Assembly (NCBI GenBank): GCA_001786765.1
Contig: MFTH01000010.1
Coordinates: 34,105-98,104, forward strand
Source: Candidatus Nomurabacteria bacterium RIFCSPHIGHO2_01_FULL_37_25
GTDB lineage: Bacteria; Patescibacteriota; Minisyncoccia; Phycocordibacterales; UBA9973
Length of the DNA: 64,000 nucleotides
Direction: 5' to 3'
Positions within the stretch are counted from its first letter, which is position 1, and every line of letters begins with the position of its first letter. Below are positions 333-58,740 of the stretch, in pieces. The translations under genes were made by a program, and so were the position numbers. The notes under the pieces were generated by a model that did not search any database, was not told the DNA's origin, and saw only the letters and a list, made by a program, of their open reading frames with translations.

Positions 333-2618
333 ATGAAATTACTTATCGTTGAATCACCATCAAAAGCAAAAACAATTGAAAAATATTTAGAAAATATTTC
401 TACCTCAAGAGCGGACAGATTTACTGTGCGCGCATCTGTGGGACATATTCGCGATCTGCCAAAATCAAATAAAACAGCGATAGATATAGAAGCCGGTTTC
501 GTTCCACATTACGAAATTTCTAAGGGTAAAGAAAAAATTATCCACGAATTGCAAGAGTTAGCCGAAAAATCAAAAGAGATAATACTCGCGACTGATCCTG
601 ACCGTGAAGGAGAAGCTATCGCTTGGCATATAGAGACACTTTTGAAAAAAGATAAAAAAATAAATGCGCCAATACAAAGAGTGGCTTTTTATGAAATAAC
701 TAAAGAAGCGATAGAAGAAGCGCTCAAACACCCGCGCAAGATTGATACTAATTTACGCAAAGCTCAAGAAGCGCGTCGAGTATTGGACCGGCTCGTGGGA
801 TATGATCTCTCTGGTCTCATTTGGAAAAAAGTGCGATACGGACTTTCGGCCGGTCGTGTTCAATCTCCCGCATTGCGTATAATAATGGAACGCGAGCGTG
901 AAATTCGCGCATTTATTCCGGAGAAATTTTGGAGAATTCTCGGACTTTTTGAAACCGAAAAAGGCGAAAAGATTACTTTAGAATGCAGTGAAGAACCTCG
1001 CGATCAAAAATTAGTTGAAAAAATATTAGAGATAGGAAAAAAAGAAAGTTGGATAATAAAAGATGTGAAAGAGTCAGAACAAAAACGCTCCCCTCGCGCG
1101 CCTTTTACTACTTCTACATTACAACAAACGGCAAGTTCACGCTTAGGCTACTCTCCTTCACGCACTATGCAAATAGCCCAAAAACTCTACGAAGCTGGAC
1201 ACATAACATATATGCGAACTGACAGCACGAATCTGTCTCTGGTCGCTCAAACACAAATAATTGCATTCATTAAAAATAAATATGGTGAAGAATACGCAGA
1301 GTCAAGAATTTACAAAACTAAATCTAAAAACGCCCAAGAAGCCCACGAAGCAATACGTCCTACACATATAGAAAACCTTACCGCTCTCAGTGAAGACCAA
1401 GACAGATTATACAGATTGATCTGGGAGCGCGCTGTGTCTTCGCAAATGACTGATGCAAAATTATTAAAAACCAAAATTTTGGCAAATGTTAAAGTCGCGG
1501 AAGCTTCCGCAATTCCAGATTTTTATGCTAATGGTTCTCGTTTGCTTTTCCCCGGCTGGCTTGCGGTAGACAAGGATGCGCGGGGCGATGATGTAGAATT
1601 GCCTAAATGCAGTGTTGGAGAAAAATTAAAATTGTTAAACCTTATAAATGAAGAAAAATTTACTGAACCATTAGGCAGATACAGTGAAGCAGGATTAATT
1701 AAAGAACTCGAGGCTAGAGGCATAGGCAGACCGTCCACTTATGCGTCTATTATGAAAACAATTGAAGAGCGAGGTTATGTTAATAAAGAAGGAAAAACAT
1801 TGTTTCCCACAGATGTCGGTGAAGTTGTGTCGGATTTCTTGGAGAAACACTTTATGAATTATATCTCTGACAGCTTTACGGCTGAAATGGAGGATAAACT
1901 CGACGAAATATCAGAAGGTCAGCGTGAATACGAAAAAACGCTCAAAGATTTTTACGGACCATTTCTTAAAGACATAAAATTAAAAGAAAAACTAGAGAAA
2001 GCTACAAATCTAGGTGAGGCGCCAGAGAATATAAAATGTCCAAAGTGTGGAGAGAAAATGATTATAAAACTTTCTCGCGGAGGTAAATTTTATTCTTGTT
2101 CAAAATATCCAGACTGTGATGGAGCTCTGATGCTAGATGGCACAGAATTACAAGGTTCCAAAGAAACTGGAGAATTATGTCCTAAATGCGGTGTTGATGA
2201 AAAAGATTTGCCCCGCGAAGCTTCAGCGAAATGGGGCGGAAAACTCGTTATCAAAGAACGACGCGACGGCACTGGCACTTTTATCTCTTGTTCTCGCTAT
2301 CCAAAATGTAAATTTATAAAAAGCGATGAAGCTGACGAAATGAAAAAAAGGACGGGTGTGATGTGTCCTATCTGCAAAACTGACCTGCCTGCCGGTAGGC
2401 AGGGAGATATGAGTGAACGCCGTGGGAGATTTGGTATTTTTTATTCTTGTTCAAATTATCCTGAATGTAAATTCGCAATCAAAGCCAAACCGACAGGCGC
2501 AATATGCAAAGAGTGCGGAAGCCTGATGATGCAAGGCACAAAAACTATTCCCGAACGTTGTTCAAACAAGGCTTGCAAAATGCACAACCCTCATAAAATA
2601 ACAAAAATTGAAAAATAG
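333..2618 (+). CDS. topA: DNA topoisomerase I with four C-terminal C4 zinc-ribbon repeats
   Basis: Toprim N-terminus (LLIVESPSKAKTIEKYL), active-site region, repeated CPxC...SCSxYPxC ribbons; ends with TAG. Confidence 0.95.
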   Translation: MKLLIVESPSKAKTIEKYLENISTSRADRFTVRASVGHIRDLPKSNKTAIDIEAGFVPHYEISKGKEKIIHELQELAEKSKEIILATDPDREGEAIAWHIETLLKKDKKINAPIQRVAFYEITKEAIEEALKHPRKIDTNLRKAQEARRVLDRLVGYDLSGLIWKKVRYGLSAGRVQSPALRIIMEREREIRAFIPEKFWRILGLFETEKGEKITLECSEEPRDQKLVEKILEIGKKESWIIKDVKESEQKRSPRAPFTTSTLQQTASSRLGYSPSRTMQIAQKLYEAGHITYMRTDSTNLSLVAQTQIIAFIKNKYGEEYAESRIYKTKSKNAQEAHEAIRPTHIENLTALSEDQDRLYRLIWERAVSSQMTDAKLLKTKILANVKVAEASAIPDFYANGSRLLFPGWLAVDKDARGDDVELPKCSVGEKLKLLNLINEEKFTEPLGRYSEAGLIKELEARGIGRPSTYASIMKTIEERGYVNKEGKTLFPTDVGEVVSDFLEKHFMNYISDSFTAEMEDKLDEISEGQREYEKTLKDFYGPFLKDIKLKEKLEKATNLGEAPENIKCPKCGEKMIIKLSRGGKFYSCSKYPDCDGALMLDGTELQGSKETGELCPKCGVDEKDLPREASAKWGGKLVIKERRDGTGTFISCSRYPKCKFIKSDEADEMKKRTGVMCPICKTDLPAGRQGDMSERRGRFGIFYSCSNYPECKFAIKAKPTGAICKECGSLMMQGTKTIPERCSNKACKMHNPHKITKIEK

Positions 2619-2650: not shown

Positions 2651-4126
2651 ATGAAAAATGCATATGACGTCGGAGAAATACTAAAATTGATGGGAAAAAT
2701 AAATAAGAAAGAAGAAGAACTTATAATAAAAGCTTATAGGTTTGCGCAGCGCGCGCATGAAGGTCAAAAAAGATTAAGCGGAGAACCTCATTTCACTCAC
2801 CCTTTTGAAACAGCCAAAACTTTAGCTTCACTGGGTATGGACGCGGAAACAATCTCGGCCGGATTAATGCATGATGTTCTGGAAGATACTAAGACAGGAG
2901 AAGAAGAAATGAGAAAAGAATTTGGAGAAAATATAGTTTTTCTAGTAAATGGCGTGACAAAACTTGGAACTTTGAAATATAGAGGACACGAAAGACATGT
3001 GGAAAGTTTGAGGAAATTCTTTGTGGCGATGGCAAATGATCTACGCACAGTTATCATAAAGTTTGCCGACAGACTGCATAATTTAAAAACTTTGGAATTT
3101 TTAAGAGAAGATAAAAGACGTAGGATTGCCATAGAATCAATCGAAGTGTATGCGCCACTGGCTAACCGTCTAGGTATGGGAAAATTTAAAGGCGAACTGG
3201 AAGACGCCGCTTTTCCGTTTGCTTTTCCAGAAGAATATAAACAAACCGAAGAAATAATAAAAGAAAAAAAAGATTTATATGAAAAAAACTTAGACGAAAT
3301 ACAGAAAAAGCTTCGAAAAGAATTGAATAAAAACAAAATCAAAGTGGTGGAAATAAATTATAGAATGAAACATAAGTACAGCTTATGGAAAAAACTCTTA
3401 AAGCGCGAAATGGATATAGAAAAAGTATATGACCTGATCGCTTTGCGGGTGGTAGTAGAAAGCATAGAAGAATGTTATAGAGTGTTAGGAATAATACATT
3501 CCCTTTGGAATCCATTACCCGGCAGGATAAAAGACTACATCGCGGTGCCAAAACACAATGGCTACCGCTCCATTCACACCACTATTTTCACCGGTTCGGG
3601 CGGAATCGCAGAAATTCAAATACGAACAAAAGAAATGCATGCCGAAGCGGCTTATGGTATCGCGGCTCATTTCGCCTACAAAGAACAAGGAAATAAAAAA
3701 GTGGAAAATGATAAATCAAAATTCAAATGGATAGAAGAATTAAAAAATTTGAATTACTCTCCGGATGAACCAAAAAAATTCATTGAGCATTTAAAGATGG
3801 ATTTTTTTAATGATCGCATTTTCGTTTTTACACCCAAGGGGGATGTAATAGATATGCCAGAGGATTCGTGTTCGCTTGATTTTGCTTATTTGATACATTC
3901 GGATATCGGAGAACATACCTTTGGCGCAAAAGTCAACGGCAAAATGGTTCAGCTTTTTACAAAATTAAAAAACGGAGACATTGTGGAAATAATAACTAAA
4001 AAAGATTCCAGACCGTCCAGAAAGTGGTTAGAATTCGTAAAAACTTCTGTCGCTAAAAAACATATAAGATCATATCTGGAAAAAAACACCTTACTTGCTA
4101 GGCTTAAATCTTTCGGTCGTTCTTAA
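2651..4126 (+). CDS. rel: Small bifunctional (p)ppGpp synthetase/hydrolase (RelA/SpoT homolog; HD + synthetase + TGS, no ACT domain)
   Basis: HD motif HDVLEDT, synthetase motifs (YRSIHTTI), TGS-like C-terminus. Confidence 0.88.
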   Translation: MKNAYDVGEILKLMGKINKKEEELIIKAYRFAQRAHEGQKRLSGEPHFTHPFETAKTLASLGMDAETISAGLMHDVLEDTKTGEEEMRKEFGENIVFLVNGVTKLGTLKYRGHERHVESLRKFFVAMANDLRTVIIKFADRLHNLKTLEFLREDKRRRIAIESIEVYAPLANRLGMGKFKGELEDAAFPFAFPEEYKQTEEIIKEKKDLYEKNLDEIQKKLRKELNKNKIKVVEINYRMKHKYSLWKKLLKREMDIEKVYDLIALRVVVESIEECYRVLGIIHSLWNPLPGRIKDYIAVPKHNGYRSIHTTIFTGSGGIAEIQIRTKEMHAEAAYGIAAHFAYKEQGNKKVENDKSKFKWIEELKNLNYSPDEPKKFIEHLKMDFFNDRIFVFTPKGDVIDMPEDSCSLDFAYLIHSDIGEHTFGAKVNGKMVQLFTKLKNGDIVEIITKKDSRPSRKWLEFVKTSVAKKHIRSYLEKNTLLARLKSFGRS

Positions 4127-5142
4127 ACGCTAAAATTAGAAATATTATATAAATCACTATCATCCCCGCCTGCCAATTGGCGGGCAGGTTTTTTAATTTC
4201 TTCTTTTGATCTATCATCGATCGGCGTATCTTCAATTTCTATATCAGATTTGTTTTTATTGATGTAGTTTTGAAGCATTTCCGCTTGCGCCGGCAAGATG
4301 TTTGATTTATTTTCACTGTTTGATTTATTTATCAAACTCAAAATAGTCCGCAGGTCTTCTATGGAAAAATAATCTATCTTGATTTGTCCGCCTAATTCTT
4401 TTCTGTCAATATGCACGCGGGTGCCTAATTTTTCTTGAAATTCTTCTTCGAGTTCAGTTATTTCTGGATCTGGCATAAACTCTTTCTTGCGTACTCGGTC
4501 ATAAGCTATTTTCCTTGCTAGTCTTTCCGCTTCACGCACGGTAATTTTTTTATATACAATTTCTTTAAATAATACTAACTGCTCTTCTCCATGATCGGCT
4601 AACATTAGTAATGGTCGTGTATGACCTTCGGTAATTTTACCTTCAGACAAACCGGCTATTATTTCTTCGGGTAAAGTTAAAATACGCAAAGAGTTAGACA
4701 CATATTCCCTACTCCTGCCCATTTTTTTTGCAATCTCATTATGAGTAAATTTAAATTCATTAGCTAATCGAAAAAAAGCGCGAGCGCGATCAACAGCATT
4801 CAAATCTTCACGTTGCAAGTTTTCAATAATGGCGAGTTCAAGCTTCATAATAGCAGTGTCCCCAGCTCGGATTATAACTGGCACTTGCGAGACTCCAGCC
4901 AAAATAGCCGCGCGCAATCTGCGTTCACCTGCTATGAGCTCATATTCAGTAACTAGTCCACCTCCATCTTTTTCCACTTCCATGCGAGAAACTGTCAACG
5001 GCTGGAGCACTCCGTATTGTTTTATGGAATCAGATAAATCTTGCAGACGCATTTCATCAAAATCCCGTCTTGGTTGATATGGGTTGGGTTTTATTTTATC
5101 GGTGTCAATCCAGAAAATTGAATTTGAATATAAATTAGACAT
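4123..5142 (-). CDS. parB: ParB/Spo0J-like partition protein
   Basis: ParB box LIAGERRLRAA, HTH region, C-terminal extension. Confidence 0.82.
   Translation of the reverse strand: MSNLYSNSIFWIDTDKIKPNPYQPRRDFDEMRLQDLSDSIKQYGVLQPLTVSRMEVEKDGGGLVTEYELIAGERRLRAAILAGVSQVPVIIRAGDTAIMKLELAIIENLQREDLNAVDRARAFFRLANEFKFTHNEIAKKMGRSREYVSNSLRILTLPEEIIAGLSEGKITEGHTRPLLMLADHGEEQLVLFKEIVYKKITVREAERLARKIAYDRVRKKEFMPDPEITELEEEFQEKLGTRVHIDRKELGGQIKIDYFSIEDLRTILSLINKSNSENKSNILPAQAEMLQNYINKNKSDIEIEDTPIDDRSKEEIKKPARQLAGGDDSDLYNISNFSV
4164..4194. terminator. GC hairpin (CCGCCTGCC..GGCGGGCAGG) plus T-run between convergent rel and parB
   Basis: Stem-loop followed by TTTTTT; bidirectional position. Confidence 0.6.
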
Positions 5143-5215
5143 AAAGTCATTCTAACACATAAAGAATTTTTTAAAATTGATTTTTAAGTATTTTTGTGTA
5201 AAATGTGTGGATACT

Positions 5216-5302
5216 GCCCAGGTGGCGGAATTGGTAGACGCGATAGACTCAAAATCTATTGATGGCAACATCATGAGAGTTCGATTCTCTCCCTGGGCAC
5301 CA
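5216..5302 (+). tRNA. tRNA-Leu(CAA), long variable arm, CCA encoded
   Basis: Acceptor GCCCAGG/CCTGGGC, anticodon loop CTCAAAA, T-loop GTTCGATTC; preceded by TTGATT-17-TAAAAT promoter. Confidence 0.85.
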
Positions 5303-5437
5303 GAAAGGAAAAATTATGTTATACTAAATATAGTCACCAAAACCGCAAAAGAACCCGGAGAAAAACACTCGGCTCGCCTGCCCGCCTCTGGAGGGAACCA
5401 TATTTTGAATTTTGGGGGAAGAAAATTTTTTAATCAT

Positions 5438-6259
5438 ATGAATTCAAAAAAGATAATATTGATTATAGTTTCCTTAGTTCTTGTAGCTGGAGTTGGTTTT
5501 TATTTTTATGGCTTACCACCTATAAAATACTGGACTAAAAATCCGACCAACTTTGAAGAATGCAAAGAAGCTACACGAGGATTTATCATAAAAACATTAC
5601 CGGCCCAATGCGAGTTTCGAGGACAGAATTTTGTGGACCAATCGCAATAGACTCCACCAGTAACAACAAATAATCCTCCAGTAACCACGACAGAGAATCC
5701 TTCTCTATCAGCAGATAAAAAGAGTGTCGTTGCAGATGGTAAGGTTTTGTTAGCCATTGATAATGATACAATTTTTAATTGGTTCAAAACCGAAAGCCAG
5801 TTATGTGATGGATACAATCTAACCAGCAATCCTGATCGCAAGATGTTTTGTGAAAACAAAACATCTTTCAAGAACCAAACTAAATTTGCCTCAGTTGTTG
5901 TTTCTCCTGATAAAATGAAAATTGGTTTTACCATAGAAAGCGATACGTTGTCTCCTGATAAAGTTGTTGGCATTTTTTTACGCTCTACCAATAAAGTTAA
6001 TATTCTGACCAATTACTATCTCGGAAATGAATTTATTAGTTTTTCTCCGAGTGGTGCCAACTTTGTTTATCAAAGTGGCTGTTTTGAGGGAATATGCGGA
6101 CTGTTTGTCAAAAATTCCGAAACCTTTGCTATCAAAGCTAGTTTGAATAATCCCGAGTTTGCCGATTACAGAAGTCAGAATGCCATTTTTGTAAGATGGA
6201 TTTCAGACAATCAAGTTGAATATAAACTTGGGACAGAATTAAAACAAGAGTCGTTTTAA
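5438..6259 (+). pseudogene. Secreted membrane-anchored protein with PT-rich linker, interrupted by an in-frame TAG at 5648-5650 (N-terminal part 5438-5650, remainder 5651-6259 in the same frame)
   Basis: ATG 5438, TM anchor, in-frame amber stop, then TPPVTTNNPPVTTTENPS linker and a globular domain with no internal ATG before 5747. Confidence 0.4.
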
Positions 6260-6451
6260 TTCTGAATTTTAGTCGCCAAAGAAAAACTTGCCCGTCCGCC
6301 GAAGTTTTAACGAAGGCGGGAAATTGTCACTCGCCTCGCTAGCGCTATGGCGAAGCGGGTCGGTGCGGCTCCCCACCTGCGCCGAAATGCGTTCGGACTA
6401 ATTCAAGACTCTAAGTCGAAATTAATTATTAACTTTGCTATAATTAAACAT

Positions 6452-7051
6452 ATGAATCAAAAAGGATTTGTGAATATTGTTTTGATTGTGGTAATTGTAA
6501 CCGTTACCGCTATTGGTGGGTATTTTGCTTTTGTTAAAAAGTTGAGACCAATTGCTCAACAACCAACACAAACTCCTATTCAAACACCTACAGTATCTCC
6601 AACGTCTCCCCAGACCAAACCTGTCACTACCACAGTTCAAAATCCGGTAGTTAATAAATGGAAAACTTTCCAAAACAGCCGTTTTGCTTTTCAATTTGAA
6701 TATCCAACAGAATGGAGCGTGTTGGATAAGCTGGACGACCCATACGGTGTTAATTTTTGGTTGACGGAAAAGAATTCTGCTGCCGTAATCATGGATGTAG
6801 AAAGTGGGATAAATTTGTCGGTTATGGGGGTTTCTTATTGTGGCGCATACCCACAAGATAAAAGATGTGAATCTTTGAAAACTGAAAGCGATGGCTATGT
6901 AACCATTGACTGGAACGTAAGCGGAGGAGCCAACGCTATGTTTAGCTCGCAGAACGATACTTATGGGGTGAGTTTTACTTTGCATAAAATAAATTCTGAT
7001 ACAAAAGCTATTTTCAAAAAAGTTCTTTCGACTTTTAAATTCTTAAAATAA
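6452..7051 (+). CDS. Hypothetical secreted protein with prepilin-like N-terminus (QKGF...hydrophobic) and PT-rich linker
   Basis: MNQKGFVNIVLIVVIV... then QQPTQTPIQTPTVSPTSPQTKP linker; same architecture as the upstream gene; ORF-track start 6347 is probably too early. Confidence 0.5.
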   Translation: MNQKGFVNIVLIVVIVTVTAIGGYFAFVKKLRPIAQQPTQTPIQTPTVSPTSPQTKPVTTTVQNPVVNKWKTFQNSRFAFQFEYPTEWSVLDKLDDPYGVNFWLTEKNSAAVIMDVESGINLSVMGVSYCGAYPQDKRCESLKTESDGYVTIDWNVSGGANAMFSSQNDTYGVSFTLHKINSDTKAIFKKVLSTFKFLK

Positions 7052-7198
7052 TTTGCCGTCAAACCTGCCTGCCGGTAGGCAGGGAAAAACTTAAAATAAA
7101 GTAGCAAAAAAAAAACAGCAAATCCTGTAAAAAAGTTATCCCCACCAGTTGAATAATGATAAGTTGCATTATCTCGTATATGAGATATACTATTTGGT

Positions 7199-8716
7199 AT
7201 GCAAACACAAACAGAACAGCAAAAAATAGGCTATTTTATTAAAGAATTACGCGAACATCGCGGGATGACACAAAAGCAATTCGCCAAAATGTTAAACACT
7301 TCCCAAAGCTCAATTCCCCGAATGGAAAAAGGTGAGCAGAATTTCACGACAGAATTACTTTTAAAAATAAGCAATGTTTTAGACCACCAGATAGTTTCTA
7401 TAAATGATTCTATTGATTTCAAAGTTAATGGAGGAAAAAAATTAAATGGAACTATTAAAACAAATTTTTCAAAAAACGGTTCTGTCGGACTTTTGTGCGC
7501 TTCTCTTCTAAATAGTGGCAAAACGACACTCCATGGTATTGCCCGGATTGAAGAAGTTTATAGAGTAATTGAAATTCTAGAGAGTATCGGAGTGACAGTC
7601 AAATGGATTAATCAAAACACTTTGACAGTCATACCTCCAAAGAAATTTAATTTAGAAAATATTAATATTGACTCAGCAATAAAAACACGTTCAGTTGTTA
7701 TGCTAATAGGACCACTCATTCATAAGTTGTCTTCTTTTTCTCTTCCACATCCCCATGGTTGCAATCTAGGCAAACGCACAATTGCGGCGCATATATTTGC
7801 ATTAGAAAAACTTGGGGTAAAAATAAAAACTACCGCAAAAAATTATGAGATAACTAAAGGGAAACTCAAAAGAGGAGAAATAGTGATGTATGAATCCGGA
7901 GACACTGCTTGTGAAAACGTTTTGACAGCTTCTGCCCTTATTCCGGGTACTACAAAAATAAATTTCACCAGCGCAAACTACATGGTGCAAGAAGTATGTT
8001 TTTTTCTTGAGGTGTTAGGAGTAAAAATTGACGGAATTGGCGCCTCGAGTTTAACTGTTCATGGAATAGCTCATATAAATAAAGATGTTGAATATTGGAA
8101 CAGTGAAGACCCGATCGAATCCATGATGTTCATTTCCGCCGCAATCGGGACTGATTCACATATAACCATCACCCGCGCTCCTATAGATTTTTTGTCTCTA
8201 GAAATAGAAAAATTAAAGAGAATGAATTTGAAATATAAAATTTCAAAAATTTATCATTCTTATAATGGTCGTACTAAACTCGCTGATATAGAAATCTTTC
8301 CAAGTAAATTAAAAGCCTTAAATGACAAGCTTCATTCCAACCCTTACCCGGGAATAAATATAGACAACCTGCCATTTTTTGTGCCGATTGCCATAAAGGC
8401 CAAAGGTCAAACGATGATTCACGATTGGGTTTATGAAAATAGAGCAATATATCTGACAGAATTAAATCGTTTAGGCGCTGATATCACTCTGGCTGACCCT
8501 CATCGTCTATATATAAATGGCGGAACACCACTGAAAGGAGCTCAGGTCGTCTGTCCCCCAGCTTTGCGTCCATCAATGGTGATTCTTATTTCAATGCTAG
8601 GAGCTAGCGGAACTTCAATCCTGCGAAATGTTTATATGATAAATCGTGGTTATGAAGAAATTGCAGAGAGGCTGAATTCTATCGGCGCAGATATTAAAAT
8701 AATTAAAGGGAATTAA
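7199..8716 (+). CDS. murA: UDP-N-acetylglucosamine 1-carboxyvinyltransferase with N-terminal XRE-type HTH domain fused
   Basis: N-terminal HTH_3 (GMTQKQFAKMLNTSQSSIPRMEKG), then full MurA (active-site Cys in HPHGCNLGKR, C-terminal RGYEEIAERLNSIGADIKIIKG). Confidence 0.8.
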   Translation: MQTQTEQQKIGYFIKELREHRGMTQKQFAKMLNTSQSSIPRMEKGEQNFTTELLLKISNVLDHQIVSINDSIDFKVNGGKKLNGTIKTNFSKNGSVGLLCASLLNSGKTTLHGIARIEEVYRVIEILESIGVTVKWINQNTLTVIPPKKFNLENINIDSAIKTRSVVMLIGPLIHKLSSFSLPHPHGCNLGKRTIAAHIFALEKLGVKIKTTAKNYEITKGKLKRGEIVMYESGDTACENVLTASALIPGTTKINFTSANYMVQEVCFFLEVLGVKIDGIGASSLTVHGIAHINKDVEYWNSEDPIESMMFISAAIGTDSHITITRAPIDFLSLEIEKLKRMNLKYKISKIYHSYNGRTKLADIEIFPSKLKALNDKLHSNPYPGINIDNLPFFVPIAIKAKGQTMIHDWVYENRAIYLTELNRLGADITLADPHRLYINGGTPLKGAQVVCPPALRPSMVILISMLGASGTSILRNVYMINRGYEEIAERLNSIGADIKIIKGN

Positions 8717-12334: not shown

Positions 12335-14752
12335 TTAATATCCTTTATTTTTTATCAAAAGCTCTAAAAATTCTTTTGGAAATATTGGTTTTTTTTCAGC
12401 TAATGCTTGATGATATAAAACCGTTGAAGGAGTAAGCCCCGGTAGAGTATTAATTTCAATTATTATAATATTGCCTGTTTTAATATGAACAAAGATGTCT
12501 ATTCTCGCATAACTCTTAACACCGACTCTCTCAGCAACCATTTCAATCAAACTTTTAACCTTATTTAAATTCTTTTCTGAAATAATTTCTTTAGGTGGTG
12601 GAGTAATGTTCACACCAGTACCTCCTTGAAATTTTTCTTCTACGCTTAATATCGTGTCTTCAGCAATGGTAATGGACGGTGAAAATGATCTGATTTTACC
12701 GTTCTCTTCAAAAACTCCAACTGTCATTTCCACATATCCGCTTTTAGGAATGTGTTTGATTTTGCCCCCATGCACTTTTAATTTATCCGTCTCAATAAAT
12801 GATTCAAAAATAATGTCTTGCACTTTTCCTTCAGGCATATCAATACTATTGATCTGATTTGTGAAAGTGTGTGGCTTGGCCACTTTAACTTTGTTTTTTA
12901 TTAAAGAAATATAAGTAGCCAAATCTTTTTTATTAAAAAGTCTAACCACGCCGGCTGAACAACCATCGCCCCTAGGTTTGCCAATAATCGTTTTTGTGCC
13001 AAATCTCTTTATAAGCATGTTCCAATGTGACTCTATGAGAGTATCATCCATATTGTTCGGAACATCATTTATCTTAAAAAGGGCATGCGAAGCAATGCTC
13101 ACATGTTCAATTTCTTCACTTTCTATTTTTTCATTTATCGCCCATTTATCCATACACAAATGAGAAGTAACGCTATCAGGTCCGTTGAAGATAACTTTTT
13201 TATCTTCTAAAATTTTCTGGATAGTGCCATCTTCACCTATCCCCCCATGTAAAGCTAAGAAAATAAATTTATGCTTTGTTATGACTTCATCCAAAGAATA
13301 TTTTTTAGGTATAAAAAAATCTTCAGTGGTGTCGGATTTTTCTAAACATAATTTTATTTTTATTTTTTCAATAAGATAAGAAAGCCTCTTAACATTTTTT
13401 TTCGCATTTTTAGCATTTTGAATTATTTCCTCAACAGTGTGATTGAGAATGTATGAGTAAGGAAGCTCCCAGACTTCTTTTTTTGGACCCAATAAATAAG
13501 GATAAGGTTTATAAATAAAAGAGCTACGTAATTTAAGCCAGACATTTGTGCCACTCATCAGTGAGACTTGCCTTTCGGCTGTTTCTCCGCCAAAAAGCAC
13601 TGCTAAAGGCTTGCGTTTTTTAGTAATAAAAATATTCTCGACAGATGTTTTAATTTTTCGACGTATAAACGCATTGTTCACAATATAGCGAAAAATATCT
13701 TGATGTGAAAAGCCAATTCTAGAGGATTGCTGAAACAAGAAACTATTCTGCTCCATACCAGAAATAGGATTAAAATCAGAAAACCAAATATTCCCGTCCG
13801 GCATTAAAAAACCATCAAAACGCGCGAAATCCCGCATACCAAAAACAGAAAATAATTGTTCTGCTTCAATTTGAATTTTTTCAATAATTTCGTTGCTAAA
13901 TCTCGGGGGACAATGATAAGTAACTTGATTGGTCGGCAGATATTTTTTACGAAAATCAAAAAATTGATTTTGATCATACTTCATTTCTACCTCTGAAGGT
14001 ATAAGAGCAACAGGCCTATTAAATTTGTTTTGTAATATAATTACGGTAAATTCTTTTCCATCAACAAAAGGCTCTATCACTACGCGAGTGTCTATACGCT
14101 TACTAAATAAACTTAAAGTCGCCTCAACTGCGTCTTTAATGTTCTCCACAGAGAAAACACCAATACTAGACCCACCAGAAGCTGGTTTTACTATTGCGCG
14201 ATTTATTTTTTCTTTTTTCCAGAATTTATTTACCTTGTTGATAATTTCTTTTTTAGTATCAGTAATTTTTATAACAATAGAATTCGGAGCATAAAAATGA
14301 AGTGAACGAAGATATTCATTTGCTTTATATTTATCAAAAGATATTTTGCAACTTTTTGATGAAGATCCGATAAATTGAATCCGATGTTTTTCTAAAAAAC
14401 TTTGAATCTCTCCGTCTTCACCAAATGATCCGTGAATACAAGGGAAAACAATATCAACACTTTTTAAAATACGAACAAGCGCTGATTCTTTTAGTTTGGA
14501 TTTATTGTCCAACTTAAAATCAAAATCGCTTGGAGTATTGGAATACAATTGAGCAATGGATATTTTATAAGGCTTTTTATGTTCATTGAAATAAATTGGA
14601 ACAATTGTCACATTTTGACTTCCCAGGTGATCTAAGACACTTCGAGCAGAGTTCATAGATATACCCCTCTCTAGCGATGGCCCACCACATAATACAGCTA
14701 CAGAAACTTTTTCATCTTTATTTTTTATGGATTTTTTATACATTTTTTGCAA
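12335..14752 (-). CDS. ddl: Tandem D-alanine--D-alanine ligase fusion (two complete Ddl/ATP-grasp modules in one 805-aa protein)
   Basis: Two Ddl N-domains (VAVLCGGPSLERGIS...; LAVLFGGETAERQVS...) and two HG.FGEDG motifs; adjacent to alr. Confidence 0.75.
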   Translation of the reverse strand: MQKMYKKSIKNKDEKVSVAVLCGGPSLERGISMNSARSVLDHLGSQNVTIVPIYFNEHKKPYKISIAQLYSNTPSDFDFKLDNKSKLKESALVRILKSVDIVFPCIHGSFGEDGEIQSFLEKHRIQFIGSSSKSCKISFDKYKANEYLRSLHFYAPNSIVIKITDTKKEIINKVNKFWKKEKINRAIVKPASGGSSIGVFSVENIKDAVEATLSLFSKRIDTRVVIEPFVDGKEFTVIILQNKFNRPVALIPSEVEMKYDQNQFFDFRKKYLPTNQVTYHCPPRFSNEIIEKIQIEAEQLFSVFGMRDFARFDGFLMPDGNIWFSDFNPISGMEQNSFLFQQSSRIGFSHQDIFRYIVNNAFIRRKIKTSVENIFITKKRKPLAVLFGGETAERQVSLMSGTNVWLKLRSSFIYKPYPYLLGPKKEVWELPYSYILNHTVEEIIQNAKNAKKNVKRLSYLIEKIKIKLCLEKSDTTEDFFIPKKYSLDEVITKHKFIFLALHGGIGEDGTIQKILEDKKVIFNGPDSVTSHLCMDKWAINEKIESEEIEHVSIASHALFKINDVPNNMDDTLIESHWNMLIKRFGTKTIIGKPRGDGCSAGVVRLFNKKDLATYISLIKNKVKVAKPHTFTNQINSIDMPEGKVQDIIFESFIETDKLKVHGGKIKHIPKSGYVEMTVGVFEENGKIRSFSPSITIAEDTILSVEEKFQGGTGVNITPPPKEIISEKNLNKVKSLIEMVAERVGVKSYARIDIFVHIKTGNIIIIEINTLPGLTPSTVLYHQALAEKKPIFPKEFLELLIKNKGY

Positions 14753-19970: not shown

Positions 19971-20025
19971 TACTACGAAACATAAATTGAGATAACTTCT
20001 TAAGATTTCCGCATATGCAGAAATC

Positions 20026-20817
20026 TCACGAAACAATCACCGTAAACTCCCCTTTTTGTTTAACAGGGTTTTGAATTAAGTAATCTAAAATTTCTTTCGG
20101 CGTACCGGTTTTCAATTCTTCATAAATTTTTGTCAGTTCACGGGCGATACAGACTTTTTTATTGGGGCAAAATTTAGTGAGTGATTCTAAAGTTTTTAAA
20201 ATTCGATGTGGAGATTCGTAAAATACCATTGTTCTTTTTGATTCGGCAATTTCCTTAAATAAAGTTTCTCTGCCTTTTTTATGCGGTAAAAATCCTAAAA
20301 AAGTAAATTCGTGTGTCGGCAATCCAGAAGCAGAAAGCGCAGTGATAACAGCACTTGGTCCTGGTATAGGAATCACATCTACGACTATGTTAACATTCTC
20401 TGCGATAGCAGAGTTTGTTAAAAAGTTAAATTTTTCTCTAAACCCTTTAGAAGAAGGGTGAAGCGATTCAGCTTTGTTGAATTTAGCTTTTATCTCTGAG
20501 ACAAGCATAGCGCCAGGGTCTGATATCGTGGGAGTGCCAGCGTCAGAAACCAATGCCAAATTTTTCCCCCCTTCCAATAACTCAAAAATCTTTGCTAATT
20601 TACTGTTTTGTCTAGAGTTTTTCCCGGCAACATCGTCAGACGGATAGCTCATCGTTGGCGTATTAATATTGTATTTTTCTAAAATTTTTTTCGTCTGTCG
20701 CGTATCCTCACACAATATCAGATCAACACTTTTTAGTGTTTCAATCGCTCGGAGTGTGATATCCTGCAAATTCCCTATCGGCGTGGCAATAACATAAAAT
20801 TTAGACATTTTGATCAA
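20026..20817 (-). CDS. rsmI: 16S rRNA 2'-O-methyltransferase RsmI (tetrapyrrole-methylase family)
   Basis: YVIATPIGNLQDITLRAIETLKSVDLILCEDTR N-terminus. Confidence 0.85.
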   Translation of the reverse strand: MIKMSKFYVIATPIGNLQDITLRAIETLKSVDLILCEDTRQTKKILEKYNINTPTMSYPSDDVAGKNSRQNSKLAKIFELLEGGKNLALVSDAGTPTISDPGAMLVSEIKAKFNKAESLHPSSKGFREKFNFLTNSAIAENVNIVVDVIPIPGPSAVITALSASGLPTHEFTFLGFLPHKKGRETLFKEIAESKRTMVFYESPHRILKTLESLTKFCPNKKVCIARELTKIYEELKTGTPKEILDYLIQNPVKQKGEFTVIVS

Positions 20818-21379: not shown

Positions 21380-21871
21380 TTATCTCCTATATTTTCTAGC
21401 GCGCCATTTATCAGCGATTTTTACACGAGTAAGTGATCGCTCGAGTTCCGCTTCAAAATGTTCAAAATCTACATGTTCTTTATTCTGCATAGCCACCTTC
21501 ATCTCTTCTGCTCGAGTTTTTGCTTTTTCTATTTTCTCGTCTGAAATTTCAAATACATGTTCTGCAAAATCAGCCAAAATAGCCACTTCTGTCACATAAT
21601 CTAAACTTTTCCCCGACGCTTCTGGTCGGGGTTCCGACCCTTCTAGGCATCGGGATTTTATTTCCACAAAACCACCAGAAACTGCCATTGGTATATTCTC
21701 GCCTTTTGAGATTCCCACCACATCTCCCGAAGCAAGACCCACAATAAGAGGTATGTGCCCCGGCAAAACAGAGATTTCACCCTCCGTAGTGGGTATAACA
21801 ACTTCATCCACCATCTCTTCTAACACAAGACGTTCTGGGGTAACTATTTTTAATTTTAATTGTTTTGCCAT
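21380..21871 (-). CDS. atpC: ATP synthase F1 epsilon subunit (probable start MAKQLKLKIV; ORF track extends to 21949); carries a 17-aa in-frame insertion encoded by a GC-rich double hairpin
   Basis: Epsilon beta-sandwich and C-terminal helices; inserted SRCLEGSEPRPEASGKS segment encoded by 21611-21655. Confidence 0.85.
   Translation of the reverse strand: MAKQLKLKIVTPERLVLEEMVDEVVIPTTEGEISVLPGHIPLIVGLASGDVVGISKGENIPMAVSGGFVEIKSRCLEGSEPRPEASGKSLDYVTEVAILADFAEHVFEISDEKIEKAKTRAEEMKVAMQNKEHVDFEHFEAELERSLTRVKIADKWRARKYRR
21611..21655. repeat. GC-rich double-hairpin palindromic element (family P2), in-frame inside atpC
   Basis: CCCCGACgcttctgGTCGGGG plus a second CCGAC..TCGGG hairpin; ~60% GC in an AT-rich gene; copies at 47574-47618 and 36083-36122. 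Confidence 0.7.
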
Positions 21872-35676: not shown

Positions 35677-35712
35677 AAGGTTTGTTTCTATCTTTTTTAT
35701 AATGTATACAAC

Positions 35713-35860
35713 TTTGAATTACGAAACTCGTCGAAGGCATGTCTTTTTTAGGGGGTTTCGAGGCTGTCGAGCCGAGAACTTCAGGATTTTTTAAGCTTAA
35801 AAAAATCCGTACCCTAGAAAAAGACATGCCTAGAAAGAGTTTTGTAATTCATGATATACA
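35713..35860. mobile_element. MITE-like element copy 1 (~148 bp, 17-bp TIRs TTTGAATTACGAAACT / AGTTT[TC]GTAATTC[AA])
   Basis: TIRs flank a core with GGCTGTCGAGCCGAG and the perfect palindrome GGATTTTTTAAGCTTAAAAAAATCC. Confidence 0.75.
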
Positions 35861-36054: not shown

Positions 36055-36082
36055 ATACTTAAATTTTAAAATGACACTGAAA

Positions 36083-36122
36083 GCCGACGATTCTGTCGGC
36101 TCCCCGACCAAATGCGTCGGGG
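36083..36122. repeat. Intergenic copy of the GC-rich double-hairpin element (family P2)
   Basis: GCCGACgattctGTCGGC and CCCCGACcaaatgcGTCGGGG. Confidence 0.65.
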
Positions 36123-36147
36123 CTACACGCTCAAAACTTGTGAATTA

Positions 36148-36300
36148 CGAAACTCGTCGAAGGCATGTCTTTTTTAGGGGGTTTCGAGGCTGTCGAGCCG
36201 AGAACTTCAGGATTTTTCAACCTGCCTGCCGGCAGGCAGGGCTTCGAAAAATCCGTATCCTAGAAAAAGACATGCCTAGAAAGAGTTTCGTAATTCAAAG
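36148..36300. mobile_element. MITE-like element copy 2 with nested CCTGCCTGCCGGCAGGCAGGG palindrome replacing the central AAGCTT hairpin
   Basis: Same TIRs and core as copy 1; 36221-36241 carries the P1 palindrome. Confidence 0.75.
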
Positions 36301-46504: not shown

Positions 46505-46536
46505 GTAGACTCTGTATATGATAAAATTACTCATCT

Positions 46537-46570
46537 GTCTAAGATTTCCGCATATGCGGAAATCTTAGAC
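46537..46570. repeat. 34-bp perfect palindrome GTCTAAGATTTCCGCATATGCGGAAATCTTAGAC (family P3) between convergent genes
   Basis: Perfect dyad; related copies at 20003-20026 and 52081-52106 with half-site 51429-51447. Confidence 0.8.
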
Positions 46571-47181: not shown

Positions 47182-49339
47182 TAAATTTTACAGAGAGAAG
47201 TTTAGAGGCTCCATTTGCGCCTATTGTGACTCCATAAAGCACTCCAGCGCGAGACATCGTCTCGCGGTTGTGAGTAACGACAATAAGCTGTGAATGTTTA
47301 GAGAGTTTCTCTAACATATCACCGTATTTGCGCGAATTTGCTTCGTCAAGCGCGGCATCGGTTTCATCCAATACCAAAAACGGTGGCGGATTTACTTGAG
47401 ACATAGCGAAGAGAAGGGCTATAGATGTGAGCGACCTCTCTCCGCCTGAGAGCGCATGAAGCTCTTTGACTTTTTTGTGAGGAAGCTTCACATTTATTTC
47501 TATTCCCTGTTCGAGCACGGATTCTTCTTCATCAATAAAGTCTTCCTCTAATTCTATATCTTCATAATTTTTTCCCGACGCTTGCGGTCGGGACCCCGAC
47601 TCCTCTGGGCGTCGGGACTTTTTATTTTCAACAACAATAGCAAGAGAACCTGTACCCCCATCGAACATTAGAGAAAAGAATTCTTGAAATTCCACATTTA
47701 TCTTTTTGATACCCTCTTTAAACTCTACATCAATTTTCTCTTTCAATTCTGCTATAAGCTTTTGTAATGATTCAACGCTTTTTGTTAAATCTTCTAATTC
47801 TTTTGCTAAAAATTGGTCCCGTTCTGAGACTTCTTTAAATTCTTTCAAAACCTCTGCTCCACTACCAACACCGGTATCTTCTAATTTTATTTTTAGGCGT
47901 TCAATTTTTTTCTTTAGTTCTTCTTGAGTAATTTCTTCTGCATTACCCTTTTTAATTTCATAATCTTTATAAGACAAAACAAGAGCTCCAATGAGCGCGA
48001 CGCCTTCTTTGATCTCATTATGAAAAGCTTCTGTCCGATTTTTTAAATTTCCCTCTTTGATAATTACCAACTCTAAAGCCGAAGACAGCTCCTGATGCTT
48101 AACTTTGAATTTAAATTTTTCTTTTTCAAGATCACGCAAAGATTCTATTTCTTTGTTTATCTCTTGCTTTAATGCTTCTATTTGCGCATTTAATTCTTTT
48201 TCTTTATTTTCTATATCTCGCGCCTCCTCTAGAAGACTAGACTGCGAAACTTTTAATTCTATTAGTTCTTTCTCGTTATTCTCTTTATTTTCTATTTGTT
48301 CTTTATTTATTTCTCCTAATTCTTTTCCGCATGTTGGACATCTGCCTAAGAGACCTCCGAGTTTTACTCTATTATTTTTCGCTTCTATCATTCCTTCTAT
48401 TCTGCCGAGCTTGCGTTCTATCTCATTCTTTAGCACTCTAATTCCACTCATTTTTTTCTCAACAATTTTTAATTCTTCAATTTTCTTATTCCCCTTAATA
48501 GAATTGCCGACTTCAATATCATGAATCTTGGGAGTTATCTGTTTTAGTTCATCGTTAATTTTATTTCTTTCGACTAACAAGCCAGATAATTCTAAATCTA
48601 AATAAATACTTTCTTTCTTGAAATATTCTCTATAGAAAGTCGAGAGCTCAATCTGCATTTCTTTCACTTTCTCAAGCTTCTCTACTTGTTTCTTCAAAAA
48701 ATTAAAATGCGGGGCGTTTTCTCTTCGTAACATTACTACTTCTTTCATATTATTAGATGTTCGTTCCAACTTGCGCTCGGATTCTTTTATTTTATATTGA
48801 TATATCTTAAGCCCGAGCGCATCTTCCACCATTTCTTTTCTATCTTTTGGACTCGCATTTAAAATCCTATCCGCTTCGCCTTGCGAAATAATATGATGCC
48901 CAGAGGAGCCGATGTTTACAGAAGCTAAAAGATTATGAACATCTTTTAACCTTACTTCTTCTCCATTTAGAATATATTTATTTAATCCGTCAGAATGCAC
49001 CTCGCGAGAAATAATGATGGTGTCATAATTTAGATTTATATTTTCCCCCGTATCATTTTCAAGTTTAAAAATTTTATCGGAATTATTGAAATATATCGCG
49101 ACATTTGCTCTGGAGCCTTTAGACAAGCTTTTTGACCCTTTGAAAATAAGATCAAGTCCCGACTTTCCACGCATTGACTTCATTGATTGTTCACCTAAGA
49201 CATAACGAAGAGCCTCCACTACATTAGATTTTCCAGAACCATTGGGACCGACGATGCAAACAATAGGACTCTCAAATTCCAAAACAGTTTTTTGAGCAAA
49301 AGATTTAAAACCATTTATTTCAAGAGTTTTGAGCCTCAT
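47156..49339 (-). CDS. smc: Short SMC-type ATPase (727 aa) with CxxC (CPTCG) at the coiled-coil apex in place of a canonical hinge; contains an in-frame GC-rich element insertion
   Basis: SMC N-head (FKSF, GPNGSGKSN), C-head LSGGERSLTSIALLFA...LDETDAALD...LYGVT; CPTCG near residue 335 of 727; inserted SRRPEESGSRPQASGK encoded at 47574-47618. Confidence 0.75.
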   Translation of the reverse strand: MRLKTLEINGFKSFAQKTVLEFESPIVCIVGPNGSGKSNVVEALRYVLGEQSMKSMRGKSGLDLIFKGSKSLSKGSRANVAIYFNNSDKIFKLENDTGENINLNYDTIIISREVHSDGLNKYILNGEEVRLKDVHNLLASVNIGSSGHHIISQGEADRILNASPKDRKEMVEDALGLKIYQYKIKESERKLERTSNNMKEVVMLRRENAPHFNFLKKQVEKLEKVKEMQIELSTFYREYFKKESIYLDLELSGLLVERNKINDELKQITPKIHDIEVGNSIKGNKKIEELKIVEKKMSGIRVLKNEIERKLGRIEGMIEAKNNRVKLGGLLGRCPTCGKELGEINKEQIENKENNEKELIELKVSQSSLLEEARDIENKEKELNAQIEALKQEINKEIESLRDLEKEKFKFKVKHQELSSALELVIIKEGNLKNRTEAFHNEIKEGVALIGALVLSYKDYEIKKGNAEEITQEELKKKIERLKIKLEDTGVGSGAEVLKEFKEVSERDQFLAKELEDLTKSVESLQKLIAELKEKIDVEFKEGIKKINVEFQEFFSLMFDGGTGSLAIVVENKKSRRPEESGSRPQASGKNYEDIELEEDFIDEEESVLEQGIEINVKLPHKKVKELHALSGGERSLTSIALLFAMSQVNPPPFLVLDETDAALDEANSRKYGDMLEKLSKHSQLIVVTHNRETMSRAGVLYGVTIGANGASKLLSVKFNEATQIAK
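47574..47618. repeat. GC-rich double-hairpin palindromic element (family P2), in-frame inside smc
   Basis: CCCGACgcttgcgGTCGGG and CCCCGACtcctctgggcGTCGGG. Confidence 0.7.
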
Positions 49340-51319: not shown

Positions 51320-51459
51320 AATATTTATATCCTAACATATTAGAAGCGAAATGCAATTTTTTTTCAATTTTCTATAAGTTTATGATTGCCAGAAAGTAAA
51401 CGTCTTCTTATTTTTTCCCAACTTTTACGCATATGCTAGAATCTTATGAAAAAGATAAA

Positions 51460-52080
51460 TTAAAATAAATGAAAATTTTTCTTTAACTTTTCTTCTCTTA
51501 AGAAGTTTTCTACAGTCAAAACCTCCACATATTTCCCCACTCCAAAGAAATCAGCAATAAAGATTATTTCGTCTTCACAAGGATAAGGATAAATCCAAGC
51601 GGATTTTTGAAATTGGAAAAAATTTAATTCTTTCAAATGATACCGTAATGCTTCTCTACCTTTTGTAAATCTCATCGGAATATCAAACATAACTAATCTC
51701 CATTTGCTATCCCATCTTTTTGGCTTGTTAATCTTCATCAGCTCAATATCGAAAGCTCTGAGTCTCGTATTTCCTTTTTTAGTAATTTTTACTATAGTTT
51801 TTCCGTTCTTGTCAGCGACATATTCTATGAGTTTTTGACGTCTAATATTATCAATAGCGCTTTGTATTTGTTTTTTAGAATACTTTTTAGATCCTTCAAA
51901 CATCTTAAAACATTGCACTGCATTACCCATAACTCCTGCGCCCAACACCAGCATAGGCATTAAAGATACAGCCAACACACAAAGAGCAACTGTGGAAATT
52001 TTTGCTTCAGTTGTATCAGACTCTAAAAAATCTTTTAATCTCTTTGAATACCCTGCTTTATTATTTTTTCCCATATACAT
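51460..52080 (-). CDS. PaaX-family-like regulator (N-terminal TM segment, wHTH, PaaX_C-like W..W.L..FDIP...LR..L...F.....S.W..P) bracketed by inverted half-palindromes
   Basis: RWDSKWRLVMFDIPMRFTKGREALRYHLKELNFFQFQKSAWIYP matches the PaaX C-terminal pattern; IRs at 51429-51447 and 52081-52099. Confidence 0.45.
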   Translation of the reverse strand: MYMGKNNKAGYSKRLKDFLESDTTEAKISTVALCVLAVSLMPMLVLGAGVMGNAVQCFKMFEGSKKYSKKQIQSAIDNIRRQKLIEYVADKNGKTIVKITKKGNTRLRAFDIELMKINKPKRWDSKWRLVMFDIPMRFTKGREALRYHLKELNFFQFQKSAWIYPYPCEDEIIFIADFFGVGKYVEVLTVENFLREEKLKKNFHLF

Positions 52081-52107
52081 AAGATTCTAGCATATGCGGA
52101 AATCTTA

Positions 52108-54047: not shown

Positions 54048-54190
54048 GTTTGAATTACGAAACTCTTACTTGGCATATCTTTTTCTAGGGTACAGATTTT
54101 TTGAAGCTTAAAAAATCTTGAAGTTTGCTCGCCGTCGCTCGCAAAACCCCCTAAAAAAGACATGCCTGCGACAAGTTTCGTAATTCAAAG
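54048..54190. mobile_element. MITE-like element copy 3 (opposite orientation, ~85% identity to copy 1), followed by a degenerate partial copy at ~54205-54275
   Basis: Same 17-bp TIRs TTTGAATTACGAAACT...AGTTTCGTAATTCAAAG and AAGCTT-centred internal hairpin. Confidence 0.75.
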
Positions 54191-54337
54191 TTAATTAGTA
54201 TAAATTCCAAAAAAACTCGTCGCAGGTGTAGTTTTTGGTAGACATTGCGCAGGCTGACGAGCCGAGCATAGCAAATTTTCAGCAGAAAATTATGCGTGTC
54301 TAACAAAAATTATACCGAGAAAGAGTTTTTTTGGAAT

Positions 54338-55747: not shown

Positions 55748-55952
55748 TTGACTTTTTCATTTTATTGTGCTATACTATAAGGGTAATAAGGTCTTTGAAA
55801 ATATAATATGTTTCGAGTTATTCTTGAGTGGTTCGCCCATCAAGTAGCTAAAGAAATTTAGCTCTTTGCTCGGCGAACGACTCGAAAAATAAATCCATTC
55901 CGACGAAAGTCGGAATACAACATGCGTCTATGAGGCGCAAAGGGAGAAGGAA
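55748..55952 (+). promoter_or_regulatory. Promoter (TTGACT-17-TATACT) plus ~170-nt structured leader, copy 1
   Basis: Near-identical promoter and colinear leader at 57351-57556, with compensatory stem changes. Confidence 0.65.
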
Positions 55953-56672: not shown

Positions 56673-56693
56673 GTAATAGAGGAGACCAAAAAT

Positions 56694-57206: not shown

Positions 57207-57264
57207 AAAGGAGGAAAAAACTTACGCAGGTGGGGAGGGTGCGCGACCCTATAACGCGCAAATT

Positions 57265-57298
57265 GGGCGGACTCAGAAATGAGTACCGCCCTTTTTTT
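57265..57298 (+). terminator. Rho-independent terminator
   Basis: GGGCGGactcagaaatgagtaCCGCCC plus TTTTTTT. Confidence 0.75.
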
Positions 57299-57350
57299 AT
57301 TTTAATATTATAAAATAAGGATAAAATAGCTTTTTTGTCAAGATTAAACC

Positions 57351-57556
57351 TTGACTTTTTCATTTTATTGTGCTATACTATAAAGGTAATCAGGTCTTTG
57401 AAAATATAATATGTTCTGAGTCATTCTTGAGCAGTTTGCCTATCAAGTAGCTAAAGAGATTTGGCTCTTTGCTTGGCAAACGAGCTCAAGGAATGGAAAC
57501 TTCTCTGGTGAAAGCCAGAGTACAAATGCGTCATCTTGACGCGAAAGGAGTCCACA
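57351..57556 (+). promoter_or_regulatory. Promoter (TTGACT-17-TATACT) plus ~170-nt structured leader, copy 2
   Basis: See copy 1; the ORF-track ORF 57469-57702 lies inside the leader and is probably not coding. Confidence 0.65.
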
Positions 57557-58654: not shown

Positions 58655-58740
58655 AAATTTTTACCGCGAGCGCCTGACCAGCGCAAACGAGGTCAGAAAG
58701 GAGAAAGGCCACAATCGCGTCTGGCCAACGCACACAAAAG

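Follow-up and report, generated by a model that had tools for sequence, protein, structure and literature searches.

How does a GC-rich palindrome of 20 nucleotides (nt) come to lie in frame inside the gene of an essential protein, and is it an old part of that gene or something that arrived from elsewhere? This question is raised by a stretch of 64,000 nt from Candidatus Nomurabacteria bacterium RIFCSPHIGHO2_01_FULL_37_25 (contig MFTH01000010.1, positions 34,105 to 98,104 of the forward strand; hereafter the window), in which the topoisomerase gene topA carries such a palindrome, here called P, and two further copies lie elsewhere. Comparison with related loci, with sister repeats in the window and with copies in many other genomes leads us to regard P as probably a mobile, non-autonomous hairpin insert. 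Its entry into DNA adds exactly 20 nt and duplicates no bases of the target, and about 10% of its copies lie at the tips of pre-existing hairpins, such as the centre of a repeat element, the centre of P itself and tRNA-like arms. In coding sequence, the copies that survive all add a multiple of three bases and are read in a frame free of stops.

P has two forms of 20 nt. The perfect palindrome (C form), CCTGCCTGCCGGCAGGCAGG, makes 10 pairs, and the T form (GGTAGG), CCTGCCTGCCGGTAGGCAGG, makes 9 pairs and one G.T; folded as DNA, the hairpin reaches -7 to -8 kcal/mol (-7 kcal/mol for the topA copy). All six frames of the C form are free of stop codons, and the T form has a single one, TAG, in one frame. 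A 21-mer that includes the T form, CCTGCCTGCCGGTAGGCAGGG, matches the window exactly at 2384-2404 and 7064-7084, against a chance expectation of 0.00 matches in shuffles of the 64-kb window, whose GC content is 36%. The site at 36221-36241 differs from it by one mismatch, which makes its first 20 nt a perfect palindrome. The features concerned are these:

333 to 2618, + strand: topA, encoding a type IA topoisomerase of 761 amino acids with four C-terminal zinc ribbons (Pfam PF01751, PF01131 and PF01396, assigned on homologues 80-100% identical)
2383 to 2403, + strand: 21-nt in-frame insert in topA (A plus the T form of P, the latter at 2384-2403), ACCTGCCTGCCGGTAGGCAGG, recognised from orthologous empty sites
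7064 to 7083, + strand: second copy of P (T form), intergenic, starting 12 nt past the stop codon of a hypothetical open reading frame (ORF) at 6347 to 7051
36221 to 36240, no strand: third copy of P (C form), at the centre of a MITE (a miniature transposable element with inverted repeats)
36141 to 36299, + strand: the MITE copy that hosts P, from repeat comparison within the window
35710 to 35851 (+ strand) and 54051 to 54192 (- strand): sister copies of the MITE, serving as empty sites

The gain of P can be read from sites that lack it, namely about 40 topA loci and the two MITE sisters, which differ by 20 nt from the occupied copy. The topA DNA was compared across 80 loci from metagenomes. 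The empty ones read AAAACTG|GAGATAT and encode CPxCK(T/K)GD(I/M)SERRGRFG; one example is TGTAAAACTG|GAGATATAAGC, where the window has TGCAAAACTG-ACCTGCCTGCCGGTAGGCAGG-GAGATATGAGT. These orthologous sites define the inserted bases as 2383-2403, or 2382-2402 given a G/G ambiguity. A 21-nt version of the element (A plus P) is inserted between both G's of a glycine codon; the residues that it adds, DLPAGRQ, follow the CPIC zinc knuckle and precede the first strand of ribbon 3. The comparison of zinc-ribbon spacing with orthologues, which the initial annotation had suggested, thus shows an in-frame gain in the window. Its placement of the palindrome inside the third C4 zinc ribbon holds, but the bases given for it (2384-2404) are corrected to 2383-2403; translation of the ORF at 333..2618 also bears out the reading of DLPAGRQG between the CPIC and SCSNYPEC halves. 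The insert is missing at the ribbon-3 position from 113 of the 120 closest TopA homologues. Similarity of TopA places the organism in Candidatus Nomurabacteria (Patescibacteria). An identical TopA protein occurs in the bins RIFCSPHIGHO2_01_FULL_37_25 and RIFCSPLOWO2_01_FULL_36_16, both from Rifle groundwater; the same topA allele was found in five contigs, and the full-length members of the protein cluster all have 761 amino acids. In an AlphaFold2 model of low confidence (mean predicted local distance difference test score, pLDDT, of 60), residues 683-688 and an extra segment of ribbon 2 (residues 622-634) are coil with pLDDT below 50, between zinc knuckle and first strand; the model lends weak support to a placement of the insert in a loop.

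The remaining seven of the 120 proteins have inserts at this position, and the DNA of four of them was obtained. Their junctions compare with that of the window as follows:

window: ...ACTG + A + P (T form) + GAGAT
L338 (protein P0114): ...AAAG + G + P (T form) + GAGAT, with one additional upstream Ile codon
L335 (P0005), L336 and L337 (both P0033): ...GG + A + P (C form) + GATAT
L339 (P0093): another palindrome, CTGCCCGCCGACCGGCGGGG, at the same topA position

Next to P, GAG has become GAT in L335, L336 and L337, and Asp becomes Tyr. Every topA carrier has nearest relatives, at 90-95% identity, without any insert, and L335 and L336 differ at the synonymous sites adjoining the insert, which speaks against a shared recombination tract. 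From these junctions we read at least three or four independent gains. P is present at this position in five topA lineages, having arrived there in several lineages of Nomurabacteria. The position combines a G|G site with a turn that is structurally tolerant. The initial annotation had held that the same insertion in distant topA orthologues would count against mobility; inserts at the same site do exist, but they are patchy, their junctions differ and their closest relatives are empty.

The MITE gives an independent view of the same event. In a base-for-base alignment of the three copies, the sisters read TTTTTTAA|GCTT, and the copy at 36141-36299 has P alone added between AA and GCTT, with zero bases duplicated or deleted. 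The exact gain of 20 nt, which the repeat comparison also shows as a change of register from 426 to 446, means that P was added to the centre of the MITE. The nesting described in the initial annotation is therefore correct, but the replacement of a central hairpin that it proposed did not take place. The copy at 7064 has the flanks A...GA, as in topA, and lies just past a stop codon exactly as first described. Relatives offer no orthologous empty site for it, because the ORFs at 5177-7051 and a tRNA-Leu gene are missing there and parB is followed directly by murA. Could these copies be transcription terminators? In a test for intrinsic terminators, the window's three copies, read on the same strand as the gene upstream, had no T-run behind them; the copy at 7064 has none 3' on the + strand and is absent from the list of terminator-like sites. 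The topA copy read on the reverse strand (2403-2384), with the tail TCAGTTTTGC, is terminator-like, yet it lies within the topA coding sequence. No Rfam family was matched in the window.

The surroundings of the copy at 7064 are of interest in their own right. Between parB and murA, positions 5150-7190 hold a tRNA-Leu(CAA) and three hypothetical ORFs without Pfam matches, and murA directly adjoins parB, without this segment, in at least 10 related loci. The segment may be an integrated element, with the intergenic P at its right edge.

How far does P reach beyond this genome? An exact-match scan of one genome per species (596 Gb, in which about 1 match is expected for a 20-mer) placed it in at least 120 genome stretches, and a viral collection contributed 47 stretches more; the initial annotation had asked whether the palindrome is unique to its three sites, and clearly it is not. 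Two control palindromes matched in composition and design (halves swapped; T changed to A) gave 0 and 0 matches in the viral collection, and among 50,697 records of cultured phages there was no exact copy of P. By record titles, the carriers among the matches listed belong to at least 10 phyla and have a local GC content of 26-72%. They include Patescibacteria of many classes, Bacteroidota, Omnitrophota, Planctomycetota, Nitrospirota/Thermodesulfovibrionia and Chloroflexota, as well as Bdellovibrionales, delta- and gammaproteobacterial metagenome-assembled genomes, Ignavibacteria and Stahlbacteria. Cultured Bacteroidota are among the carriers (Winogradskyella, Flagellimonas, Olivibacter, Longitalea and Flavivirga). 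When the six central bases were freed, the matches listed contained GCCGGC 42 times, GCCGGT 14 times and each other near variant at most 2 times, rough counts that include loci fetched beforehand; P appears to exist as two discrete master forms. The window holds 3 copies in 64 kb, whereas 950 kb of related loci have only about 5 P-like copies, which depart from the perfect form at 1-3 bases.

Other palindromes were seen in the same material. The viral contig L245 (IMGVR_UViG_3300025106_000007) has at least 11 tandem copies of a 21-nt P-like unit, CCATGCCTACCGGCAGGCAGG, at 3915-4142, up to the contig end. Three short palindromes recur in loci of different phyla: the perfect palindrome TCCGCCAGCTGGCGGA (L021 2857, L022 160, L046 966 and L014 3331), which has 6 viral matches when extended to 18 nt, the perfect palindrome TCCCGATAGCTATCGGGA (L057, L073 and L092), and CCGAACG..CGTTCGG (L054, L106 and L138). 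P may thus belong to a wider class of palindromes and be its most abundant representative.

What do the insertions have in common? Their anatomy was followed in 130-180 copies and flank logos were drawn from 129. The flanks are unrelated save for one biased base on each side. Among 48 T-form copies, position -1 is a purine in 46 and position +1 is G or T in 43 (G 29, T 14, A 0), and the 5' and 3' biases are independent of one another. The check for target-site preference that the initial annotation had proposed therefore has a positive answer, a purine before P and G or T after it, with no longer motif found among the 129 copies. Insertion is often at G|G, and the C form is frequently part of a 22-nt perfect palindrome, A-P-T. 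At least 5 copies are split at the centre by another P, the outer copy still amounting to 20 nt (L020, L026, L059, L065 and L109). Flanking stems of at least 6 bp surround 10.6% of the copies, compared with 2.3% of random positions; examples are a terminator-like hairpin with P in its loop (L110), inverted repeats of larger size (L036 and L113) and the MITE of the window. Several copies lie within tRNA-like D-arm fragments. In the viral contig L231 (IMGVR_UViG_3300033148_008720), P occupies the variable loop of a tRNA-Met(CAT) at 2284-2303, and its removal leaves a perfect tRNA-Met; the P hairpin would there resemble the long variable arm that class II tRNAs have. Disruption of a tRNA gene was also considered for L021, L052 and L242 and rejected, their hosts being merely 5' tRNA fragments.

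P is strongly depleted from coding DNA and mostly intergenic. About 10-20% of the copies lie inside ORFs that read through them, nearly all in the LPAGRQ frame. Hosts of such in-frame copies include FtsK, a Trp/Tyr-tRNA synthetase, ribosomal protein S6, ScpB, a histidine-kinase ATPase domain, a glycosyltransferase and RmlB. P also takes part in a widespread composite element, CCCCTCTCC-loop-GGAGAGGG...GGGGTGAGG (L225 977, L226 332 and 4512, L097 1291, L017 3114 and L076 1626), and in L097 the whole composite is in frame (SLSFGEGQ-GLPAGRQG-EVR) within the histidine-kinase ATPase domain. No larger carrier element was found, flank clustering having given small groups only, and a search for separated half-sites of P as the terminal repeats of a bigger transposon found none. 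Pairs of copies less than about 100 nt apart were seen in only a few loci, and the copies of the window are not in inverted pairs. In intergenic DNA, P is often seen within stuttering, degenerate tandem repeats of 7-8 nt (L050, L058, L071, L080, L090, L098, L105 and L202), and these blocks are sometimes inverted on both sides of it.

P is accompanied in the window by other small palindromes in coding sequence:

4123 to 5142, - strand: parB (Pfam ParB_N, HTH_ParB and ParB_C)
4165 to 4188, - strand: 24-nt GC-rich quasi-palindrome, in frame in parB, encoding PARQLAGG and missing in 12 ParB orthologues
4280 to 4298, - strand: second GC-rich in-frame insert in parB, encoding ILPAQA in a GC-rich island, with a six-residue gap in 12/12 orthologues
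2210 to 2237, + strand: GC-rich imperfect palindrome in the ribbon-2 loop of topA, part of GVDEKDLPREASAKWG

All 12 ParB orthologues read EEIKK|DD where the window has PARQLAGG. On the + strand, the hairpin at 4164-4189 also matches a terminator consensus behind a RelA/SpoT gene (identified by Pfam), because two Lys codons next to it, AAAAAA when read along parB, appear there as a T-run. The initial annotation had taken 4164-4194 for a rel/parB terminator made of a hairpin related to P; the consensus is indeed matched, but the hairpin is a 24-nt in-frame insert inside parB and differs from P in having two alternative 6-bp stems in place of a perfect dyad. As a dispersed family, this 24-mer had 0 matches in viral contigs. 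The ribbon-2 loop of topA reads GEKKGKSGG in most relatives and GVDEKDLPREASAKWG in the window, a gain of 7 amino acids, and the relatives L138, L178 and L136 have unrelated GC-rich palindromes in the same loop. The window DNA at 2210-2237 folds weakly (z = -0.07). The extra segment noticed earlier in this ribbon is thus a genuine insertion relative to most orthologues, but an old, decayed copy of P is ruled out, the palindrome being of a different family. A further repeat consists of two adjacent GC-rich hairpins, YCCCGAC-N7-GTCGGGR and then CCGAC-N9-11-RTCGGGA; it lies within ORFs that read through it, those of ATP synthase epsilon (189 amino acids; repeat at 21604-21681) and SMC (47566-47643), and a related intergenic copy at 36082-36122 adjoins a tRNA-Ile. 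It resembles the double-hairpin elements of mitochondria.

How might P move? The moving form is probably a single-stranded hairpin, since the abundant T form keeps its G.T wobble on one strand only and mutations of the central CCGG are rare. The conservation of unpaired central bases suggests recognition by a sequence-specific trans factor. Mobilisation in trans by a sequence-specific enzyme encoded elsewhere is possible, although we would not quite bet on it. Somewhat more doubtful is mobilisation by the enzymes of replication and repair, which would switch templates or capture a hairpin at a nick; this route would fit the lack of a linked gene, the carriage by genomes of about 1 Mb and by phages, the extreme host range and the variable junctions (+A, +G). 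The complete WWE3 genome that carries P (L052) measures 897 kb. In an essential gene, the survivors would be those insertions that add +3n bases, are read without a stop and lie in a surface loop that tolerates them, and such a filter would account for the length of 21 nt, for the LPAGRQ frame and for the topA hot spot. P would have no evident host function, adding seven residues to a zinc-ribbon loop. Taken to its limit, this line of thought would make P a pan-bacterial selfish hairpin and, at 20 nt, the smallest known transposable unit. It would have no protein of its own, would be spread by one widely shared enzyme or by the replication and repair enzymes found everywhere, would be carried across phyla by phages or other mobile DNA, and would seed loops in essential proteins, tRNA-like arms and hairpins in repeats. 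We consider this full version unlikely.

Several observations weigh against the reading of P as a mobile insert. The copy number per genome looks low, which is unusual for a selfish repeat, and we know of no transposition system that explains the identity of a 20-mer across phyla. A search for a mobilising enzyme was negative: clustering of the 1,802 ORFs from the 8-kb flanks of 120 loci gave no recurrent family other than common housekeeping types, and scans of 20 ORFs of the window gave no transposase. The proteins encoded by a viral contig in which P occurs six times are unannotated or structural only. The 129 copies show no conserved 4-5-nt target motif of the kind that a Y1/HUH transposase would leave, and the T form has no orientation bias relative to neighbouring genes. 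Some insertions are inexact, as the in-frame junctions contain one further base, A or G. Finally, the recurrence at one topA position could in part reflect precise loss or short-tract recombination and not repeated gain. Against these points stand the empty sites in topA and the MITE, the self-nesting and the in-frame copies, which support the idea, already voiced in the initial annotation, of small mobile palindromes that land in coding sequence.

If not by movement, how else could one sequence be so widespread? P might be a selected cis-element, such as a protein binding site, an RNA hairpin, or a terminator or stabiliser. Its near-invariance across phyla, the mostly intergenic copies, some directly past stop codons as at 7064, and the fit of the 4165-4189 hairpin to the terminator consensus would agree with that, but its contexts are unrelated and share no conserved neighbour gene, it is patchy among near relatives, and it sits within essential coding regions, MITEs, tRNA-like sequences and P itself. 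The three window copies have no + strand T-run, and the sole terminator-like strand (2403-2384) is inside topA, all of which makes a cis-element improbable. Repeated de novo origin, by slippage and fold-back (template switching) on tetranucleotides of the CCTG/CAGG type and convergent across phyla, is an idea that we find quite improbable. P does consist of repeated tetranucleotides set in inverted order, many of its copies are found in intergenic DNA that stutters in the manner of short tandem repeats, and a P-like unit of 21 nt forms a tandem array at the end of one viral contig; few copies per genome, a very broad host range and slightly varying coding junctions are also what such a process would leave. 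However, two palindromes of the same design have 0 matches where P has 47, the four central bases are conserved although dispensable for pairing, and no CCTG seed from which P might have grown is present at the empty sites of topA and of the MITE.

The other two explanations fare worse. That DLPAGRQ is an old, vertically inherited segment of TopA, lost in some lineages, could draw on the seven close homologues with an insert here, but the segment is missing from the other 113 and from about 40 DNA loci, its scattered carriers each have empty nearest relatives, their junction bases and P form vary, and the same 20 nt also occur between genes and in a MITE of the window; we give this very little credence. 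A sequencing, adapter or assembly artefact repeated across metagenome projects comes to mind because most carriers are metagenome-assembled and a short perfect palindrome resembles some linkers. Its probability is practically negligible, given that P is present in cultured isolates and in assemblies of many projects, that coding copies add +3n bases in one preferred frame, that the topA allele recurs in five contigs with all full-length cluster members at 761 amino acids, and that P is strongly depleted in coding DNA.

A mobile P would matter in several respects. If it truly moves from Patescibacteria to Bacteroidota, Planctomycetota and viruses, it would mark a lower size limit for mobile elements and would imply a shared, unrecognised mobilising activity or a general pathway of hairpin insertion. 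It would also be a means of gaining surface loops in essential proteins in one step, as in TopA, ParB, FtsK and S6. For annotation, inserts of the P type would explain odd GC-rich LPAGRQ segments in the proteins of AT-rich genomes, and they could be mistaken for terminators, as at 4165-4189. The cultured Bacteroidota carriers make the mobility of P experimentally testable.

Some further features of the window are recorded here. A 24-nt near-perfect palindrome, AGATTTCCGCATATGCGGAAATCT, has four copies (19982-20026, 46521-46565, 52061-52105 and 51413-51469) with similar AT-rich flanks at gene boundaries and could be an operator-like or promoter-associated repeat. Positions 55900-58700 form an island of 45-48% GC, whose ORFs (55953-56672, 56694-57206 and 57536-58654) have no Pfam match, and which is probably foreign DNA. 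An ORF of 805 amino acids at 12335-14752 has two D-Ala-D-Ala ligase matches, an apparent tandem fusion, and the MurA encoded at 7199-8716 has an N-terminal helix-turn-helix domain of the Cro/C1 type.

How does P compare with known systems? Its closest named class is that of the repetitive extragenic palindromes (REPs) and REPINs, which are mobilised by REP-associated tyrosine transposases (RAYTs). Like P, they are dispersed, GC-rich, mostly extragenic and non-autonomous palindromes and are presumed to move as hairpins. REPs are GC-rich palindromes of 20-40 nt, and occasional copies are found within genes, especially those for replication and repair (PMC3733652). Unlike P, which is a perfect dyad, they carry an unpaired GTAG/CGTC tag at one end; none was seen in the 129 flanks of P, and the GTAG of the T form is internal and missing in the C form. 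REPs are species-specific, of high copy number and often in inverted pairs, whereas P is identical across phyla and present as three single copies in 64 kb. No RAYT was seen in the 8-kb flanks of 120 P loci or among the 20 window ORFs scanned.

Other systems are similar in single respects. The Rickettsia palindromic elements measure about 100-150 bp and are not known outside Rickettsia. Like P, they are in-frame palindromic inserts in protein-coding genes, housekeeping genes included, and add a stretch of peptide that does not destroy the protein (the elements are also mentioned in PMC3733652). They are about five times longer and unrelated in sequence, whereas P has 20 nt and reaches at least 10 phyla. 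IS200/IS605 elements, which depend on single-strand hairpins, also leave no target-site duplication, but they insert 3' of a fixed target of 4-5 nt that stays beside the element, where P has a one-base preference on each side and no orientation bias. The definition of a MITE, derived from a DDE transposase, by terminal inverted repeats flanked by a target-site duplication does not apply to P, as no duplicated bases were found in the MITE comparison or in the self-nested copies. The GC clusters and double-hairpin elements of mitochondria are GC-rich palindromes in AT-rich genomes, sometimes in frame and nested; they are organellar and of different sequence, whereas P occurs in genomes of 26-72% GC. 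The small dispersed repeats (SDRs) that Elhai et al. reportedly described in cyanobacteria in 2008 are said to be mobile repeats of about 21-27 nt with hairpin potential, nested, and present or absent between related genomes; those of heterocyst-forming cyanobacteria reportedly form lineage-restricted families with sequences other than that of P. To our knowledge, neither spread across phyla nor in-frame entry into essential genes has been described for them. In open-access full text, no published description was found for the sequence of P, its halves or its encoded peptides, and broader searches gave papers on REPs, MITEs and organellar palindromes only. The kind of element is therefore known, and what is new is one 20-nt sequence that occurs across many phyla and viral contigs and lies repeatedly in frame in essential genes.

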